A stretch of 64,000 nt of DNA from a virus (lineage: Duplodnaviria; Caudoviricetes), in the IMG/VR virus record IMGVR_UViG_3300021387_000796, positions 96,001 to 160,000 of that record; one strand, written 5' to 3'. The translations under genes were made by a program, and so were the position numbers. Below the pieces are notes generated by a model that made no database searches, had not been told where the DNA came from, and saw only the letters and a program-made list of their open reading frames with translations. Of the stretch, positions 1,238-63,719 are shown one piece after another. Positions within the stretch are counted from its first letter, which is position 1; each line of letters opens with the position of its first letter.

Positions 1238-1291
1238 AATTTCTTGCAAATTAAATAAAAAATTGATATGATATATTCAAGGAGAAAAATA

Positions 1292-1957
1292 TTGAAAAAA
1301 TACGAAGATGTGTACAATGAAGGTTTTATTAAAAATAATATTCTTCAAGTTCGAGAGAATAATAACAGAAAAGAAGTTGATTTTTATTTAATCAATGTAA
1401 TCGAAGATATAGAAGATTATATTGATTTTTTACGAGAAGTCGATTCATGTCGAGACGGTGATTTAATTACAATTCATGTTAATTGTTATGGTGGTAATTG
1501 CGATGTGGCTATGAACATATATGATTGTTTGAAATTGTCACCTGCGGAAGTGATGATTTCAATTGAGGGTGCTTGTTGTTCATGTGCATCGATGATTATG
1601 CTTGCTGGTAATTATTGGAAAGTTTACCCTCATTCTTATGTTATGATTCATGCTTGGTCCGAAGGTATCTATGGAAAATGGCACGAAATCATTTCCAAAT
1701 TTAATTACGATAAAAGTATATTTGAAAAACAATTTAAAGAACTTTACAAAAACTTTTTGAATGATTATGAAATAGAAGATTGTATTAAAGGAAAAGATTT
1801 TTATTTTGATTCTTCTGAAACAATAAAAAGATTGAATGTTTATCAAGAAGAAGATGTTAAATGTGATGAGGCTATTAAAAAAATCACTGATAAATATTCT
1901 TCTCTTGCAGAAAAAGAAGTAAATCAATACTTAAAAAAAGTATCTAAGAAAAAATAA
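1292..1957 (+). CDS. clpP: ClpP-like serine protease
   Basis: HVNCYGG...IYD, GACCSCASMIMLAG (catalytic Ser), VMIH (catalytic His); TTG start after AAGGAG. Confidence 0.8.
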   Translation: MKKYEDVYNEGFIKNNILQVRENNNRKEVDFYLINVIEDIEDYIDFLREVDSCRDGDLITIHVNCYGGNCDVAMNIYDCLKLSPAEVMISIEGACCSCASMIMLAGNYWKVYPHSYVMIHAWSEGIYGKWHEIISKFNYDKSIFEKQFKELYKNFLNDYEIEDCIKGKDFYFDSSETIKRLNVYQEEDVKCDEAIKKITDKYSSLAEKEVNQYLKKVSKKK

Positions 1958-15461: not shown

Positions 15462-15662
15462 ATGAAATACGATTTGGTTGGTGTTGGCGGAAACGCTTTA
15501 GTAATAATGGGATACGTTCTTAAAGCAATGAGAGAATGCAAGATGTCTAAAGAAGAACAGTCAGATTATCAGAGGAAAGCAATAATTGGCGATTACGACC
15601 ATCTTTTGGCAGTATCAATTGAAATGATTGATTTGTGTAATGAGATTGCAGAAGAATCTTAA
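15462..15662 (+). CDS. small phage protein (LVG..GNA...G family)
   Basis: ORF with its own promoter and RBS. Confidence 0.6.
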   Translation: MKYDLVGVGGNALVIMGYVLKAMRECKMSKEEQSDYQRKAIIGDYDHLLAVSIEMIDLCNEIAEES

Positions 15663-15783
15663 TGTGTAAAAACTTGCGTATTAACCTTGTTTTTATTAGT
15701 TAAAGTGCAAGTTCTTACTAGTTATGAAAAAAGTAACTATCTTTTTATAGAAATATTATTTTTTTTAATGGAGAAATAGAATT

Positions 15784-16146
15784 ATGTTTAGTGTAACATC
15801 AGAACATTGGGAAGAAATCTTACCAAAAATTGAAAAAATTTGTAATAATTATAATAAAAAATTTTCTAAATTTGACGGTGAACTTAAAGACATCAGTGCT
15901 TATAGTGGAAATAATGAAAATGAAATAGAATTTTTTGTACCTACTTTAAGATTTTATCCTTTTGATAGCAGAAATGTGTGTAGAATTGAATGCGATGATG
16001 ATAATAAAGCGACATATAGTGTTTCTTTACCAAATCATATTTATAATGATGAGGAATTTGATAATATTGTAAATGGCTTGGAAAAGGTAACATCTTGTAA
16101 ACTTTTCTATGAAAATTTAATTGATGAAATTACAGAATTGGTTTAA
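15784..16146 (+). CDS. acidic hypothetical protein (AACTAT operon)
   Basis: TAACTAT at 15734; GGAG RBS. Confidence 0.65.
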   Translation: MFSVTSEHWEEILPKIEKICNNYNKKFSKFDGELKDISAYSGNNENEIEFFVPTLRFYPFDSRNVCRIECDDDNKATYSVSLPNHIYNDEEFDNIVNGLEKVTSCKLFYENLIDEITELV

Positions 16147-16162
16147 TGGAGAAAAATAAATT

Positions 16163-17071
16163 ATGGCGATTGCAGAAATAAAATGGAAATTGGTGAAAGA
16201 CACCTACCTTTTTGACACCACAACTTGTTATCTCAGTGAAAACGGTGATTACATGTTTTATAGAGGTAAAGAAAAACGAATTGAAATTTTAATAGATGAC
16301 CTTAATGAATTAGTTAGAAAAGGTTGTGCGATGTGGCTTAAACTTGGAGAATATGATTTTTATGATTTTGGTTTGGATAAACTTCCAAAATGTCCAACAC
16401 AAACATGGTATGGTATTCATCAGATGTTATATTCTCTTGAACCTTGGGGAGTTATGAAAGAATCAAAGGAATCGACAAGAAAATCAATCAAGGAATCTAA
16501 ATCTGATTTATTAATCGATATTCAAAATCTTATTTCGAGTAGTGGACTTTTAGATTCCATAGCAGATGTTGAAGATACATTAGAAATTGCATATATGATT
16601 GCTGAAAGATTAGACCCTAGTGATTATGGATTTAAAGATGAAGATGCATTAGCAAATAAAATAAATTTTGAATTAAAATATGATAGGGAATACGCAAAGT
16701 TATTTGAATCAAAAAAATTTGTTCGTAAATCAATCAAGGAAGCGAACGAAAGCGTAATTATTGACGGCAAAAAGACGAACTTTAAAATTAACGATTACGG
16801 TACATTTTTTGGCGAAAAGATAAAGTATATGTTAATCGGTAAGCCTTCGGAAAATAAAGATGTTTTGGCTGATTTCTTGGAAGAAAATTCTAATTTTGAA
16901 TTCGAGGAATATAAAATACCTTATTCTACTGTATATTACATTTATAATGATGAGAAAAGTTTGTTTGGGGTGGCTTACAGACATTACATTAGGTTGACTA
17001 ATGATGAGAAAGATGCAAAAATTATGTTGGCTTACGCAACAGACAAAAGAGATTTGTATAACGGTCTTTGA
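16163..17071 (+). CDS. three-domain protein with two ESK..RKSIKE linkers; candidate internal-head polyprotein
   Basis: ESKESTRKSIKE and ESKKFVRKSIKE. Confidence 0.7.
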   Translation: MAIAEIKWKLVKDTYLFDTTTCYLSENGDYMFYRGKEKRIEILIDDLNELVRKGCAMWLKLGEYDFYDFGLDKLPKCPTQTWYGIHQMLYSLEPWGVMKESKESTRKSIKESKSDLLIDIQNLISSSGLLDSIADVEDTLEIAYMIAERLDPSDYGFKDEDALANKINFELKYDREYAKLFESKKFVRKSIKEANESVIIDGKKTNFKINDYGTFFGEKIKYMLIGKPSENKDVLADFLEENSNFEFEEYKIPYSTVYYIYNDEKSLFGVAYRHYIRLTNDEKDAKIMLAYATDKRDLYNGL

Positions 17072-17090
17072 TATAAATAAGAGGAACAAA

Positions 17091-17675
17091 TTAAATAAAA
17101 TTAAAGATGATATTAATGCCGAGACTGCAATGGATGTAATCAGAATGATTTTTAACAAATTGAATGATTCTGAAATTTTATCTACACCCACATTAAATAA
17201 AAAACTTCATTATTTTAATGATACTTATTTTGGAACAAAATTATTGAGTGCTGATAAACAAGATTTCAAAGATGCTATTGAAGAAGCATTAGATTATATG
17301 GAAGATTGTATATCTAAAGGTTCAAAGAAAGCAATAGATGTAAAATTAACAGACGAAGATACAAAACGAGAATTTGAAAACTTGTATAATTTTTTGAATG
17401 ACCATTCTAAAGATTATGAGTTTGGTATGGATGGAAGTGCAAAAGGGTCGGTGAATTTTTGGATTTATCCGAAGAATACAGATAAGTCATTAGAGGTTAG
17501 TATTTCTGAAAATTATCATAAACATTCTTTCCAAGTTACCGTATTTGAACTTGATGAAAATGGTGAAGAAGATAACATCCCTTGGAGCAAAGAATATGGC
17601 AATGTAGACGAAGAATTTTTTGATTATGGAGATTTAAGGGCATTATTGGAATCAATTTCTTGGGGTAATTTTTAA
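17091..17675 (+). CDS. acidic hypothetical protein, start uncertain
   Basis: open frame; GAGG at 17081 precedes TTA17091; next ATG at 17130. Confidence 0.55.
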   Translation, partial: LNKIKDDINAETAMDVIRMIFNKLNDSEILSTPTLNKKLHYFNDTYFGTKLLSADKQDFKDAIEEALDYMEDCISKGSKKAIDVKLTDEDTKREFENLYNFLNDHSKDYEFGMDGSAKGSVNFWIYPKNTDKSLEVSISENYHKHSFQVTVFELDENGEEDNIPWSKEYGNVDEEFFDYGDLRALLESISWGNF

Positions 17676-17676
17676 T

Positions 17677-18060
17677 ATGGCAAAGGGAAATTTCAGAAAC
17701 CTATCAAATCAATGTACAATGTGTGGAAAATCTAAAGTTGTAGCCAAAGAAGGAAAAGGTGCAAATAAATATTATATGTGTACCGATTGTTTATGGAAAA
17801 CAATTCTTTCTGAAATTAAAAATAACGAATCCATGCAGTATCTCACAATTTTTGAATTGGATGCTTCTGATATTTCCAAAAATGATATGATTGAAATTCT
17901 GTACGATATGGAAAGATTAGGTTATGATTTTTCTGATGATGATTTTCATATTGTTGACAGTGATAGAGATATAACAAAAGTATATATGAATGAAAGTTTG
18001 CAAGGTGGTTGGTACAGAAAATATATGAGTAAAGAAGAATTGAGCAAAAAGATGAATTAA
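17677..18060 (+). CDS. small Zn-finger protein (CxxC...CxxC) with acidic tail
   Basis: CTMC and CTDC pairs. Confidence 0.6.
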   Translation: MAKGNFRNLSNQCTMCGKSKVVAKEGKGANKYYMCTDCLWKTILSEIKNNESMQYLTIFELDASDISKNDMIEILYDMERLGYDFSDDDFHIVDSDRDITKVYMNESLQGGWYRKYMSKEELSKKMN

Positions 18061-18161
18061 CTATCTTATATAACTAATGGGGGTGTAACAAGTGTTACTT
18101 CCCTTACATTCCCCATTTAAATAAATATTAAATTATTAATGAGAATGGAGAAAATAAAATT

Positions 18162-18980
18162 ATGACAAAAGCAGAAAAAATATTGAACAAATGCGAACAT
18201 ATTCTTGATGATTATGATGCAGATTATCGTGGTGGATATGTAGATGTTATTGACGGAACAACTTATATTGTTTTCAAATATTATGGTGGAAAACACGATA
18301 CTATAGACAGAAATGATGATTCTTGGGATGAGATGTATGAACTCGAAGGTGTTGCTGATGTTGGTTATGGTAGTGGATATGGAATGGACAATACAAAATA
18401 TGAAGATATGCTTTTAATTGAATTAGAAGATGGATTGAATGAATCTAAAAATTCTGCAAGAAAATCAATCAAGGAATCTAAATATAAGGTAAGTGATTTT
18501 AAAAACACATCAAATAAAGAAGTATCTATTTCATATGTTGACGAAGATGACAATCCTTTATGGGTAGGAAGTCCTGATGAATTGGAAGATTGTGATTATT
18601 CTGATTATGATGTTGAAGAAGTTGGAGAAGAAGGAAACACACTCTATCTATCAATTGAAGAATCTAAAAAGTCAATGAGAAAATCAATTAAGGAAGCAAA
18701 AAATATAACTTTCTCAGATTTATGTGATGAATTAGGAATATCTTATATGGATATTTATGCTATAGGATATGATGATGGTGATGCTGATGGAATATCTTAT
18801 TATTGTGATGAAATGTTAAAAGTTGGAATTAAAATACTTAAAAATGAAGCAATTCAAATTACAGGTCTTGGTACTTTTATTGGAAAATTTAATTTTAATG
18901 ATTATATAAAATATCCAACAAGTAATACATCTATTTTATTACAAGATAAATCAAGACTTTTAGATATTTATCTTAAATAG
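18162..18980 (+). CDS. three-domain acidic protein with two ESK..RKSIKE linkers
   Basis: ESKNSARKSIKE and ESKKSMRKSIKE; TAACTAT at 18058. Confidence 0.7.
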   Translation: MTKAEKILNKCEHILDDYDADYRGGYVDVIDGTTYIVFKYYGGKHDTIDRNDDSWDEMYELEGVADVGYGSGYGMDNTKYEDMLLIELEDGLNESKNSARKSIKESKYKVSDFKNTSNKEVSISYVDEDDNPLWVGSPDELEDCDYSDYDVEEVGEEGNTLYLSIEESKKSMRKSIKEAKNITFSDLCDELGISYMDIYAIGYDDGDADGISYYCDEMLKVGIKILKNEAIQITGLGTFIGKFNFNDYIKYPTSNTSILLQDKSRLLDIYLK

Positions 18981-19009
18981 AAACTTTTAATAAATTAAAA
19001 AAAAAGAAA

Positions 19010-19034
19010 AGACCTAGACTAAAAATCTAGGTCT
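19010..19034. terminator. hairpin terminator, copy 1
   Basis: AGACCTAGA/TCTAGGTCT. Confidence 0.65.
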
Positions 19035-19064
19035 CTATTATAATAAGAGACATGGAGGAAATAT

Positions 19065-19502
19065 ATGAATTTATATGACAAACATTTTATACACAAAGTT
19101 TGGGATGAAAGTTTAAGATACAGATGTGTCTTACCGTCAAATGATTTGAAAGAAATAAAGGATTGCATTAAAGGAAATTATGGAGGATATATGAGTGTGT
19201 ATCCTTCTGATGATGAAGATTTTCCATTCAAAAACGAATATTTGGGAAACTTCAAATATGTTTATTATGACCCTTATTGCTATGAAAAATTGGAATATTA
19301 TAAAGGAACTCCACTAGAAGTAAAAATAAAAGGAAAATGGGTTGATGTAAAAAACGACAAATTTAAATGGAATCATGAATACCGAATTAAAGTTAGTAGT
19401 GCGGATAATTCTGTATTTGAAACAAACATTTACGAAATGAATGAAGATAAAACAAGGTTTGCTAAAATTATGGAATTTTTAAGAAAAATATTGAAGAAAT
19501 AA
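19065..19502 (+). CDS. hypothetical protein, paralog of 27028-27852
   Basis: shared L(Y/F)DK.....W..L, PF....YYDP and W..(Y/W)RIK motifs. Confidence 0.6.
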   Translation: MNLYDKHFIHKVWDESLRYRCVLPSNDLKEIKDCIKGNYGGYMSVYPSDDEDFPFKNEYLGNFKYVYYDPYCYEKLEYYKGTPLEVKIKGKWVDVKNDKFKWNHEYRIKVSSADNSVFETNIYEMNEDKTRFAKIMEFLRKILKK

Positions 19503-20116: not shown

Positions 20117-21547
20117 ATGGAAAACATTATCATTAACGTACACGAAGACAACCTTTCAATTTTCAACGAAAAACTCAAGGAATTAAATGAGAAGTTCAGC
20201 AAGAAAGGACTTCCGCTCATCAACTGTTCTATGGAACAGAAAGAGATGGAATGTGTCGATGAATGGACTAAGGAAAAGTTTTCATACACAATGTATATTG
20301 CTACCCTTTCATCTGATTTTAATAATACAAATCTTAGTGGTGTTGATGTTGAATTCTGTGGAGTTGTATCTTTGGTAGAGGGCAATGAAAACGACAAGAT
20401 TTACACTTTCAAGAACATCAACTACTCTTCTCTCCTTGCAAACTGTTCTTGCGATAAATGCCACAAGAAAATTGGTCGTAACAAGTACCTCGTATTCAGT
20501 AAGGTTGGAAAAGAAGTAGAAACTCGTGATGACCTTGTAGTGCTTGGAACATCTTGTGCAAAAGATTATTTCCCATTCAGCGTAGAATCATATTTTGGTT
20601 TCTTGGAATCTGCTTTCGAAGAACTCGGTTCTTATGATGAATTCCGTGGTTCATTCGGTGGTTGTTCTTCTCATTATCACACACTTTCAGCAATCTATAC
20701 TGCTACACTTGCTTGTAGTGACAACTTGAAGTGCTATGAAAAAGAAGGTGTAACAAAGGGTAATGTTCTTGGATGGCTCAATAATCTTAAAATGGATAAA
20801 TACACATACTATCGTGATGCTTATCCTATGCCACAGAATCCTATTCCTTTTGAAGATGTAATTTCTTGGATAAAGGATATTTACGATACTGATGACTTTG
20901 TAAGTGATTTCCACACAAACGCTCGTTCAGTATTCTTCAAGACACTTAATGATGGTACTCGTGAAATGCGACATGAAATCCACGAAAAGTATATGGGAAT
21001 TGCCGTATATGCTATGTTCTCTGCAAAACAGAATCACGATAAAATGGTTGCTAAAAAGATTGCAGAAGAAAAGCGTATGGCTGAAAATGCAAAGGTTGAA
21101 TATTACGGCAATGTTGGTGACAAGTTTGAACTCACTCTTACTTTTGATAAATCATTCGGTTTTGAAGGTGCTTATGGTTTTACTTATATTCACCTTTTCC
21201 ACGATGATGAAAATCATGTTTTTGCTTGGAGTTCTAGTAATGGAAATTACAAAGTAGAATATGCTAAAAATGTAACTTGGGGTGGAATTGAATACGTTGA
21301 GTATGAAGTAGGACATAAATATCTCATTAAAGGTTCTATCAAAGACCATCGTGAGTATCGTAATGTAAAACAGACAGTTATTACACGTTGTAAGGTTTTA
21401 GATGATTTTATTGAAAGAAAAGTTGAAGTAAAGGAAAATCTCAAGGGTGAAAAATGTGCAAGAATTGTTGATGATGAAGAAGTTTTAGATAAGTTGCTTG
21501 ATACTACAAGTGAATCAGAATTTGAAAAAATTATAAAAATCGCATAA
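20117..21547 (+). CDS. phage protein with a CxxC motif and a probable C-terminal OB-fold-like domain
   Basis: CDKC..KIGR, GTSC, G..GDK...YG......D....F.W...GSIKDH.EY..VKQT..TRC. Confidence 0.6.
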   Translation: MENIIINVHEDNLSIFNEKLKELNEKFSKKGLPLINCSMEQKEMECVDEWTKEKFSYTMYIATLSSDFNNTNLSGVDVEFCGVVSLVEGNENDKIYTFKNINYSSLLANCSCDKCHKKIGRNKYLVFSKVGKEVETRDDLVVLGTSCAKDYFPFSVESYFGFLESAFEELGSYDEFRGSFGGCSSHYHTLSAIYTATLACSDNLKCYEKEGVTKGNVLGWLNNLKMDKYTYYRDAYPMPQNPIPFEDVISWIKDIYDTDDFVSDFHTNARSVFFKTLNDGTREMRHEIHEKYMGIAVYAMFSAKQNHDKMVAKKIAEEKRMAENAKVEYYGNVGDKFELTLTFDKSFGFEGAYGFTYIHLFHDDENHVFAWSSSNGNYKVEYAKNVTWGGIEYVEYEVGHKYLIKGSIKDHREYRNVKQTVITRCKVLDDFIERKVEVKENLKGEKCARIVDDEEVLDKLLDTTSESEFEKIIKIA

Positions 21548-30350: not shown

Positions 30351-31019
30351 TTAGAACTGTTCAGTTACTTCTCTAATGGCGTCAGTGATGAACTCTTCCA
30401 AATCATCAACATCTTCTTGTAAAAGAACTGTATTAGGTTTGTAATTATTTACCAAAGCATGTCCATATTCGTCTTGTACTGTCATAGAAACTGTAAGTTC
30501 AATACCTTCATCGGTTTCTTCAAGTTCGCAAAAAACATCAGTGTACAAATCCATTCCATCCAAATCATTTTCATAATTGGAAAGTTCTTCAGCGATGTCT
30601 CTTGCACCCATATCATACAAATCATTATAATTCAACTTTTCATCATCTTTATCTGTGATTCCAAGTTCAATGAGTTCATCTTTATTTTCATCCCAAACTC
30701 TTTCTCTTGCATAATCAAGTTGTGAATCCATCATATCTTCACAAATTTTAGCAAGTTTCTTGTTACTTGGTGTATATCCGCTAGAATAAAAATATGTAGG
30801 AAGTGTAATGTAATCTATATCAACATCACCATTAGAAGTGATTCTTGCACGACCTTTATTGTCATAAGTAACGATACCATCAGAATAACCCAAATCAAAC
30901 AAATCAGAATGTGGGTCTTCCAAAATACTTACGATTGTATCTCTTACCAACTGTTCAAATCCTACTGTACGATATTCTTTTAATGATTTTTTATTTCCTT
31001 TCTTTGATTCCATAATCAT
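30351..31019 (-). CDS. highly acidic protein with an N-terminal ESKKGNKKSLKE leader
   Basis: linker motif at residues 4-15. Confidence 0.7.
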   Translation of the reverse strand: MIMESKKGNKKSLKEYRTVGFEQLVRDTIVSILEDPHSDLFDLGYSDGIVTYDNKGRARITSNGDVDIDYITLPTYFYSSGYTPSNKKLAKICEDMMDSQLDYARERVWDENKDELIELGITDKDDEKLNYNDLYDMGARDIAEELSNYENDLDGMDLYTDVFCELEETDEGIELTVSMTVQDEYGHALVNNYKPNTVLLQEDVDDLEEFITDAIREVTEQF

Positions 31020-31044: not shown

Positions 31045-31911
31045 TTAAAAAGCATCAATCATTCTCTGAATCTGCTTTCTGAAATCCTTTTCGTTATCGG
31101 CAAGTTTTTCTCTTGCAACTTCTGTTGAACCAAGTCCGTTACCTAAATCAACATCAGCATAAACCAAAAGTTCCTTCAAATCGATTGTAAGTATGAAAAC
31201 AATTGGCTCATACTCATTCAAAACATCAAAGTATTTTTCATCGTCTCCATCAACATCTTCCCATACTTTATTAACTTCTTTATAATATTCGTTATCTACT
31301 TTTTTGTTGGTAAAAGAGTATCCTGTGTCAATTGGTACGGTGAAATCGGCGATAGCAGAAATTTCAATATATCTGTCTTCATCACGTGATTCATCATCCC
31401 AATGTGATGATTCACCAAACAATCCACCTCTTGAATACTTCCATTTCTCATCAAGAATATTCATAAGTTCTTCAAGTGGAATAGCACCTTCGTATTCAAA
31501 AGATTCTTTAATTGATTTCTTTTCTTCTTTCATAGATTCCTCAAACTTGTTAAAATATTCTTCAATGTTAGAACTAATCATTTTATATGAATAATCAATA
31601 TCATATTTTGCAAAGTGCCAACTTCCAAGATGGTCGTCTGTATATGATGCACCATCTGTATAATGTCTTGTAATGTCTGCCCATCCACCTTCATCAAATG
31701 TAAAGAACAATCTTACAGGAAAATCATTGTTTTCAGCCACAATATAACAGTTATCTTGACCATAATCAGCCTTAAACCACCAATCCTTCTTGAACTCTTT
31801 TGTAAGATATTCAACCATTTTCTTGAGATTAATATGAATCAAGAAATAAGCATATAAGTCATCAGACCAATCTTCATCTCTCGGTTCAACTTTCCAATCA
31901 TATTTTGCCAT
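31045..31911 (-). CDS. two-domain acidic protein with an ESMKEEKKSIKE linker
   Basis: AGGAG RBS; TAACTAT at 31954-31960. Confidence 0.7.
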   Translation of the reverse strand: MAKYDWKVEPRDEDWSDDLYAYFLIHINLKKMVEYLTKEFKKDWWFKADYGQDNCYIVAENNDFPVRLFFTFDEGGWADITRHYTDGASYTDDHLGSWHFAKYDIDYSYKMISSNIEEYFNKFEESMKEEKKSIKESFEYEGAIPLEELMNILDEKWKYSRGGLFGESSHWDDESRDEDRYIEISAIADFTVPIDTGYSFTNKKVDNEYYKEVNKVWEDVDGDDEKYFDVLNEYEPIVFILTIDLKELLVYADVDLGNGLGSTEVAREKLADNEKDFRKQIQRMIDAF

Positions 31912-31953
31912 AAATTTATCTCCTAAATTGATTTTTTTAGTTTTATACATTAT

Positions 31954-31970
31954 ATAGTTAAATAACTATT
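31954..31970. promoter_or_regulatory. back-to-back TAACTAT motifs between divergent genes
   Basis: ATAGTTA-AA-TAACTATT. Confidence 0.6.
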
Positions 31971-63056: not shown

Positions 63057-63719
63057 ATGGATTTAGATGAAAAAGGAATATACAAATACAATCAGAGAAA
63101 AAGAGAAATATCCCCTAATTATGTATGTTTTCCAAATAACATGGCTCAAGCGTGGGAAATTTTAAATCAATCGGAAAACTGTTGGAATAATGTATTAAAT
63201 TATCATACTGAATTTAAAAGTGTTGCTGATAAACTGACTTATTTTTTAAGATTTGAACCAATGATGCAAGAAATATACAAGTTTTACTTTCCTACGGAAT
63301 ATAAAAAATGGATGGAAGATAAAACTAAAGACCAATACCTATATTCTAATAATTCGTATCCTCCAAATGAGATTTTTAAAATCGTTTGTATAGGATTTAA
63401 TTTGTTTTTATCTATGAATAAAGGTGATGATTTTAAGGCGGTTTGTTATACAAAATCTATGAATTTGAATGAGATTAAAAAAGAAATTGATAATGGAAAA
63501 CCTGTGGTGACTTCGTTCAAATTAGGAAATATAGGTGGACACCTAATGACTGTAAAGGGATATGATAGGAGCAATTTATATGTTTATGACACTTATGGAT
63601 GCTCCTACTTGGAAAAATTTAAGAGTAAAAACAATGCAAAGATTTTGAGTTATAAAGAGTTCAATGAGTTGGCAAAACCTACTGATTCAGAGAGCAAGTT
63701 TTGCATATGTTTCTATTGA
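63057..63719 (+). CDS. C39-like cysteine peptidase (possible endolysin)
   Basis: YNQ..VCF, G.PVV, GHLMTVKGYD, VYDTYG. Confidence 0.65.
   Translation: MDLDEKGIYKYNQRKREISPNYVCFPNNMAQAWEILNQSENCWNNVLNYHTEFKSVADKLTYFLRFEPMMQEIYKFYFPTEYKKWMEDKTKDQYLYSNNSYPPNEIFKIVCIGFNLFLSMNKGDDFKAVCYTKSMNLNEIKKEIDNGKPVVTSFKLGNIGGHLMTVKGYDRSNLYVYDTYGCSYLEKFKSKNNAKILSYKEFNELAKPTDSESKFCICFY

Follow-up and report, generated by a model that had tools for sequence, protein, structure and literature searches.

Polymorphic toxins carry junction motifs, VENN in CdiA and PxxxxDPxGL in Rhs, and the Rhs motif is also a cleavage site. Phage T4 works with a single N-terminal leader of 10-19 amino acids (aa) per protein and with one protein per gene. 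T4 core proteins are each cleaved into several fragments by the prohead protease gp21, and the internal proteins of its head are basic (PMC9026906). The phiKZ and SPN3US proteases cut after S/A-x-E, with Ser favoured at P1' (PMC9026906, PMC10052503). Polyvalent proteins hold 2-15 distinct domains per polypeptide, and the paper on them (Iyer et al. 2017) proposes that domains are released by proteolysis (PMC5512222). Here, we describe a 12-residue linker by which a tailed phage strings small protein modules together. The linker was studied in a stretch of 64,000 nucleotides (nt), called the window below, which comprises bases 96001-160000 of the phage record IMGVR_UViG_3300021387_000796, a single 218,066-bp IMG/VR sequence of 29% G+C. 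This linker is a genuine, repeatedly used unit on which selection acts, and it is the in-frame swap point for modules between genes and between phage strains. It is also a putative double site for a gp21-type prohead protease, at both ends of which the polyproteins would be cut, a proposal whose case we regard as evenly balanced.

Three known concepts come nearest to this arrangement: the T4 capsid-targeting/gp21 system, polyvalent proteins (PMC5512222) and the junction motifs of polymorphic toxins. As in the T4 gp21 system (IPI-III, Alt, gp67, gp68), the phage has a gp21-family protease together with a scaffold, sites of the hydrophobic-x-Glu type and a site at the end of an N-terminal capsid propeptide, and its cargo-like genes are variable and look non-essential. 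Unlike T4, it has internal paired sites 12 residues apart, several acidic modules per open reading frame (ORF) and no common leader. As in polyvalent proteins, many unrelated domains share one polypeptide in variable architectures. Polyvalent proteins, which often stand in late-gene contexts, are large, contain recognisable enzymatic conflict domains and usually have their own embedded metallopeptidase (MPTase) (PMC5512222), whereas the present modules, of 60-210 aa, fall in no Pfam or PHROG family, carry no embedded peptidase and are joined throughout by a single fixed linker. In eukaryotic RNA virus polyproteins, one ORF likewise gives several products and conserved protease sites lie at the junctions, as would be the case here; those polyproteins have an embedded protease and a fixed, essential order, whereas the order of the present modules is shuffled and the candidate protease is a separate head-assembly enzyme. 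The linker also resembles the junctions of polymorphic toxins, in that a short conserved motif marks the exchange point of variable modules; unlike those toxins, the linker proteins have several joints each and are phage encoded. No toxin or secretion family was found in them by Pfam and PHROG scans, and the module folds were not recognised. No description of such a reused joint was found in the literature searched, and, if the joints are cut, this phage would be the first known to us to use a single universal cleavable spacer both for the release and for the shuffling of many small proteins.

Four 36-nt copies of the linker lie in frame in two ORFs on the + strand of the window. All four had been reported in the initial annotation of this DNA and were recovered at exactly those positions, and a degenerate back-translated pattern gave 4 matches in the window against 0.00 expected from 100 shuffles. 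The ORFs that serve as gene calls are our own picks, and positions refer to the window unless the genome is named.

16163-17071, + strand: 302-aa three-module linker protein, with modules at 16163-16459, 16496-16705 and 16742-17068
16460-16495, + strand: linker 1, (VMK)ESKESTRKSIKE(S), with contig breakpoints at 16460, 16464, 16480, 16498 and 16501
16706-16741, + strand: linker 2, (KLF)ESKKFVRKSIKE(A), with contig breakpoints at 16727 and 16742
18162-18980, + strand: 272-aa three-module linker protein, with modules at 18162-18440, 18477-18659 and 18696-18977
18441-18476, + strand: linker 3, (GLN)ESKNSARKSIKE(S), residues 94-105 with a predicted local distance difference test score (pLDDT) <50, with joints at 18441 and 18479→18441
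18660-18695, + strand: linker 4, (SIE)ESKKSMRKSIKE(A), residues 170-179 with pLDDT <50, with a joint at 18660 and a loose end at 18695

Six-frame and hidden Markov model (HMM) scans, which extended the search for the motif to the whole genome, recovered 9 ORFs that together contain about 12 strong and 6 degenerate copies. Six places in the genome bear linkers, and the second of those within the window holds two linker-bearing proteins.

genome 7987: linker locus
genome 24391 and 25943: linker locus
16163 and 18162, + strand: linker locus of the two ORFs above
31045 and 30351, - strand: second linker locus in the window
genome 209896: linker locus, with a six-module protein
in genome 191005: degenerate linker copy
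31045-31950, - strand: 301-aa two-module protein, with linker ESMKEEKKSIKE at 31504-31539
30351-31019, - strand: 222-aa acidic protein that starts with a linker copy, MIM-ESKKGNKKSLKE-Y (30975-31010)

The consensus hydrophobic-x-E-S-K-[KEN]-S-[ATV]-R-K-S-[IL]-K-E-[SAE] was derived from 83 distinct linkers of this phage and of its relatives, and the full form reads hydrophobic-x-E↓S-K-K-S-A-R-K-S-[IL]-K-E↓S/A, where the arrows mark putative cuts. The initial annotation had seen hydrophobic-x-Glu at both linker ends, a pattern that holds across the larger set: of 43 distinct upstream contexts, 40 have a hydrophobic residue at P3 of the first Glu site, against a background of 41%, and P1' past the second Glu is mainly S, A, E or G. 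Since the hydrophobic P3 sits in the unrelated upstream module, the unit can be described as two hydrophobic-x-E↓S sites, 12 residues apart, with a basic core between them. Shortened linkers, ES[KR]KS[IM]KE and the minimal S-[IL]-K-E↓S, retain the last of these sites.

The linker DNA, AAATCAAT(C/T)AAGGAA, had also been described as conserved. It is shared at this locus, but the codons differ at other loci, where AAATCTTTGAAAGAA is found, for example, and Ser can be AGT. Over all copies, Ser is encoded by TCA, TCT, TCG, TCC or AGT and Leu by TTG, TTA or CTT. Among 18 distinct linker DNA copies, the proportion of synonymous differences (pS) was 0.51-0.57 and that of nonsynonymous differences (pN) 0.11-0.16, with a ratio of 0.22-0.28. 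This codon drift, together with the low pN/pS, indicates that it is the linker peptide on which selection acts, rather than a DNA or RNA signal; the latter is ruled out, as synonymous sites vary freely. An internal Shine-Dalgarno sequence (AAGGAA) was also rejected, since it belongs to the KSIKE codon version only and the KSLKE copies read TTGAAAGAA.

The structural prediction places the linker outside the folded domains. AlphaFold2 predicts the linkers of the 272-aa protein as disordered coil (pLDDT <50) and its three modules as well folded, with scores of about 90; the mean pLDDT of the model is 77.7. The predicted template modelling score (pTM) of 0.38 suggests that the modules have no fixed mutual orientation, and coil linkers between such modules would leave the predicted cleavage site accessible. 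The model of the 302-aa ORF was unusably poor (pLDDT 46).

Next, 77 non-redundant proteins were cut at their linkers, which resulted in 192 segments belonging to 68 module families. Linker proteins have 2-6 modules each, and the order of the modules is not fixed in relatives, as module neighbours vary: 28 of the 30 recurrent families (at least 2 members) occur in more than one neighbour context, and the first module of the 302-aa ORF (family 0) is followed by at least 25 different modules. Some N-terminal modules are near-constant 'heads' with many different tails, and one module can be first, internal, last or free-standing across proteins. IMG/VR relatives show modules exchanged from one locus to another: a module housed here in the genome-209896 protein stands, in L012, between the first and last modules of the genome-24391 protein. 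The initial annotation had suggested that the linker acts as the shuffling joint, and contigs of other ruminant-gut samples do break or rejoin at linker edges (window 15600-19100). Joints from three other samples connect 16480→16727, by which the middle module is replaced (15 shared letters), 16498→18441, 16501→18660 and 18479→18441, and loose ends fall at 16460, 16742 and 18695. Moreover, 50% of the internal ends of BLAST high-scoring segment pairs fall no more than 5 aa from a linker, compared with 17% at random.

The modules themselves are as the initial annotation described them, three to an ORF, mostly acidic and without obvious similarity to one another. They measure 99/70/109 aa in the 302-aa ORF and 93/61/94 aa in the 272-aa ORF; all six are net acidic (-2 to -15), and all 24 modules of the genome are net acidic or neutral. 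None of these 24 has a BLAST paralogue in the genome, and hidden repeats among them are ruled out at the BLAST level. Neither Pfam nor PHROG gave a family above threshold in any of the 9 linker proteins, Foldseek against PDB and BFVD found no module match at E <= 0.001, and VIA-align returned for module B1 only a generic alpha/beta fold (Z <= 7, within noise). The third module of the 272-aa ORF is a free 89-94-aa protein in many contigs, and P0068 and P0069 (90-94 aa, the latter a cluster of 16 sequences) are free-standing module forms. Hydrophobic-x-E-[SA] was examined for depletion inside modules, and an apparent excess there was caused by degenerate linkers left unsplit.

The premise of a T4-like protease, made in the initial annotation, finds its counterparts in a gp21-family protease-scaffold ORF and in a capsid protein with a conserved [LIM]-x-E↓A.

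genome 201738-203465 (L008:3672-5399), - strand, outside the window: gp21-family protease-scaffold, 575 aa, with the motif TAACTAT at its head
genome 36413-37987 (L002:17413-18987), - strand: major capsid protein (MCP), 26% identity to the 'major head protein' of Pseudomonas phage QdP_Psa3

The 575-aa ORF opens with a globular domain of about 200 aa, continues as a long coiled coil and ends in an acidic tail. A profile HMM built from T4 gp21 and seven other phages was compared with the proteome, and this ORF was the only match covering the protease domain (E 4.4e-6); the next match (E 0.004) was a short, spurious one to an RNA-ligase-like ORF. By hhalign, the 575-aa family and gp21 aligned over 124 columns with a probability of 85.7% (E 5.4e-6). 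Residues H96 and S148-150, invariant in 25 homologues of the ORF, correspond in the alignment to the gp21 motifs NHP and VSS, which we take to contain the catalytic His and Ser. Just past the protease domain, the family consensus shows F-K-E-S and I-x-E-S. The ORF has 123 metagenomic homologues, down to 43% identity. Compared with T4 gp21 as a single sequence, it scored marginally (31.7; the best of 70 shuffles reached 30.4), and the assignment to the gp21 family is therefore made on the family profile and not on this score. Scans of the genome with PF03420, PF07068, PF04586 and PF01343 gave nothing, the QdP_Psa3 head protease and phiKZ gp175 had no match when used as queries, and a profile search of PDB sequences resulted in coiled-coil matches only.

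The MCP was recognised solely through the QdP_Psa3 'major head protein'. Its N-terminal region of about 107 aa ends, after a variable and gap-rich segment, in the conserved [LIM]-x-E↓A, and the conserved body comes next. Across 82 homologues (34-95% identity), P3 (residue 105) is L/I/M/F/V in 81 and P1 is E in 81, while P1' is A in 66/82 and S in 6/82. The position is likely the maturation site, being where a T4 gp23-like cut would be expected. In the present phage it reads M-K-E↓A, which is near the I-K-E↓S/A and M-K-E↓S of the linker, and the capsid site thus implies the same specificity for the protease at the linker ends.

The initial annotation had also viewed the linker as a packaging tag. 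This fits poorly, as the linker decays ahead of first-position modules, where MNYNLRE-SINANS and MRE-SININS are found, as opposed to ESKKSARKSIKE-SINANS. Just two ORFs, window 30351-31019 and genome 7987-8781, have a linker-like stretch at the protein start. The decay ahead of N-terminal modules weakens the idea of a targeting tag and, judged by these sequences, the linker is not an N-terminal targeting tag.

We propose a 'beads-on-a-string' organisation, in which independently folding, mostly acidic modules of 60-210 aa would be strung on a disordered, basic spacer of 12 residues. Each end of the spacer (hydrophobic-x-Glu↓Ser/Ala) would be a cutting site for the T4 gp21-type prohead protease and, given such a double site, the chains would enter the prohead and be cut there into single modules and a small basic peptide. 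More speculatively, the freed modules might be internal head proteins that are delivered with the DNA and act on the host. Only tentatively do we extend this to a clade of ruminant-gut jumbo phages, in which the protease-cleavable joint might serve as a plug-and-play cassette whose effectors are recombined, loaded into the prohead, freed and delivered with the DNA. A phage population would then possess a 'magazine' of anti-host proteins for injection, combinatorial in make-up and quick to evolve. With cutting at the joints, features of T4 capsid-targeting/gp21 logic, of polyvalent proteins and of polymorphic-toxin junctions would be combined in one system; dozens of orphan modules (68 families already) would become candidate injected effectors against bacterial defences, and nature would here offer a design by which phage heads could be loaded with several cargos. 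Even when uncut, the linker is a recombination joint under purifying selection in wild populations, and it shows phages building proteins from parts.

Several observations weigh against cutting in the prohead and delivery with the DNA. Hydrophobic-x-Glu is a common tripeptide, and the 575-aa protease was missed by PF03420 of Pfam and by PHROGs. The modules are acidic, unlike the basic internal proteins of T4. At their N-termini, the linker proteins are unrelated to one another and have no shared leader resembling a capsid-targeting sequence (CTS), and a different CTS-like leader, MKSIxLxKxYLIE↓G, stands on other proteins and not on the linker proteins. TAACTAT also heads nrdD and endonuclease genes, so that the class of genes behind this motif can be called 'late' only provisionally. 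Finally, the distant relatives P0053, P0056 and P0057 have the variant S-S-R-K-A-I-K-S-S without flanking Glu, seen on contigs of 1.7-8 kb only, which suggests that the basic core may be the older functional part.

Alternatively, the spacer could be an uncleaved, universal connector, a soluble and flexible joint for in-frame recombination, with the intact multi-module chains as the acting form. This is a rather doubtful alternative, under which the spacer would be conserved as the only tested one that keeps modules independent, with recombination homogenising its copies. The breakpoints at linkers and the existence of Glu-less variants agree with it, as do the locus-specific codons (KSIKE in the window, KSLKE at 24-27 kb), which suggest local homogenisation, and polyvalent phage proteins can be delivered uncut (PMC5512222). 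Nevertheless, flexible linkers rarely need 12 fixed residues, and synonymous sites are near saturation while the peptide is kept, which means that DNA identity is not maintained. Moreover, the hydrophobic P3 lies in unrelated upstream DNA and is yet present in 40/43 contexts, and modules are also found free-standing.

Cleavage may otherwise occur in the cytoplasm, by a ClpP-like, C39-like or host protease, and the modules would then be cytoplasmic effectors and not head cargo; we consider this unlikely. The cut could fall at the dibasic K-K↓S or R-K↓S, and [RK]-K-[SA]-[IL]-K is common to the linker and to the distant Glu-less variants. The absence of a capsid-targeting leader from the linker proteins is in line with such a cut, and the genome encodes both a ClpP-family protease and a Peptidase_C39_2 protein (window 63057-63719). 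Against this, C39 enzymes cut after Gly-Gly, the ClpP is closest to free-standing ATP-dependent proteases and would degrade and not trim, and the hydrophobic-x-E↓S at both ends, along with the matching capsid site, favours a gp21-type enzyme. Least probable of all is that the spacer is a binding or modification motif, either a basic patch that fixes the acidic modules to nucleic acid or to the acidic scaffold, or a site of Ser phosphorylation ([RK]-K-S-hydrophobic-K). The basic, Ser-rich invariant core and the strongly acidic scaffold tail and modules would suit it, but no kinase or partner was identified and both the two-sided hydrophobic-x-E and the linker decay before N-terminal modules would be left unexplained.

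The initial annotation had assigned the linker genes to an AACTAT class, and all six linker loci were found behind TAACTAT, either directly or after 1-2 short ORFs. The genome has 95 copies of this promoter-like motif, most of them intergenic and pointing toward a nearby start codon, and it also heads capsid, sheath, gp5-like hub and fibre genes or operons. The copies at the window loci and the first ORF of the operon are as follows.

15734-15740, + strand: TAACTAT, heads the operon of the 120-aa and 302-aa ORFs
15784-16146, + strand: 120-aa ORF without linker, first in the operon with the 302-aa ORF
18058-18064, + strand: TAACTAT, overlaps the stop codon of the ORF ahead of it and precedes the 272-aa ORF by 104 nt
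31954-31960: TAACTAT of the 301-aa ORF

Between TAACTAT and the 272-aa ORF, the stretch GGGGTGTAACAAGTGTTACTTCCC (18080-18105, + strand) contains the inverted repeat GTAAC-AAGT-GTTAC, which could be a leader hairpin.

The stretch of DNA in the window is present in sequencing runs from sheep, bovine and other gut metagenomes. Most proteins of the phage are orphans. Homologues of the linker proteins are few and all metagenomic: the 302-aa ORF has 37, and the 272-aa ORF matches 34 clusters in a set of 1.84 billion representative proteins. IMG/VR contained 3 relatives only, and searches of it with the 272-aa ORF, P0053 and P0056 gave no match. In one sheep-gut RNA library, contigs cover parts of both window ORFs, which is no proof of transcription.

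The CTS-like leader has the form MKSI(R/T)L(R/T)K..(L/I/V)(I/V/L)E↓G and is common to three unrelated proteins, one of them of 265 aa, repetitive, highly charged and scaffold-like. It is similar to capsid-targeting sequences of the T4 type and differs from the linker.

genome 19000-19797, + strand: leader-bearing protein
genome 12148-12636, + strand: leader-bearing protein, with an internal start in ORF 11836
genome 51853-52017, + strand: leader-bearing protein

As for other peptidases, the ClpP-family serine protease (window 1268-1957, + strand; PF00574, E 1.2e-14; phrog_1827, E 1.2e-46) adjoins a ThyX-like gene, far from the head genes. The Peptidase_C39_2 protein (220 aa, window 63057-63719, + strand, E 2.8e-8) lies just upstream of the gp5-like hub operon (genome 159750-161327).

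The 120-aa ORF at 15784-16146 has a paralogue at genome 188139-188501 (- strand; 38% identity, E 3e-21), and each of the two stands behind TAACTAT, directly upstream of a linker or linker-like protein. The start of genome ORF 186902-188029 contains ...TSKKSLEEQMKESLK.... Between the two window linker genes lies a 127-aa zinc-ribbon protein (17677-18060, + strand) with a weak, sub-threshold match to Lar restriction alleviation (PF14354, E 0.004). Further along, a 476-aa protein (window 20117-21547, + strand) matches phrog_2319 (E 2e-31); in the relative L013 (6281-7765) it adjoins a four-module linker protein, and it is thus syntenic with the linker locus.

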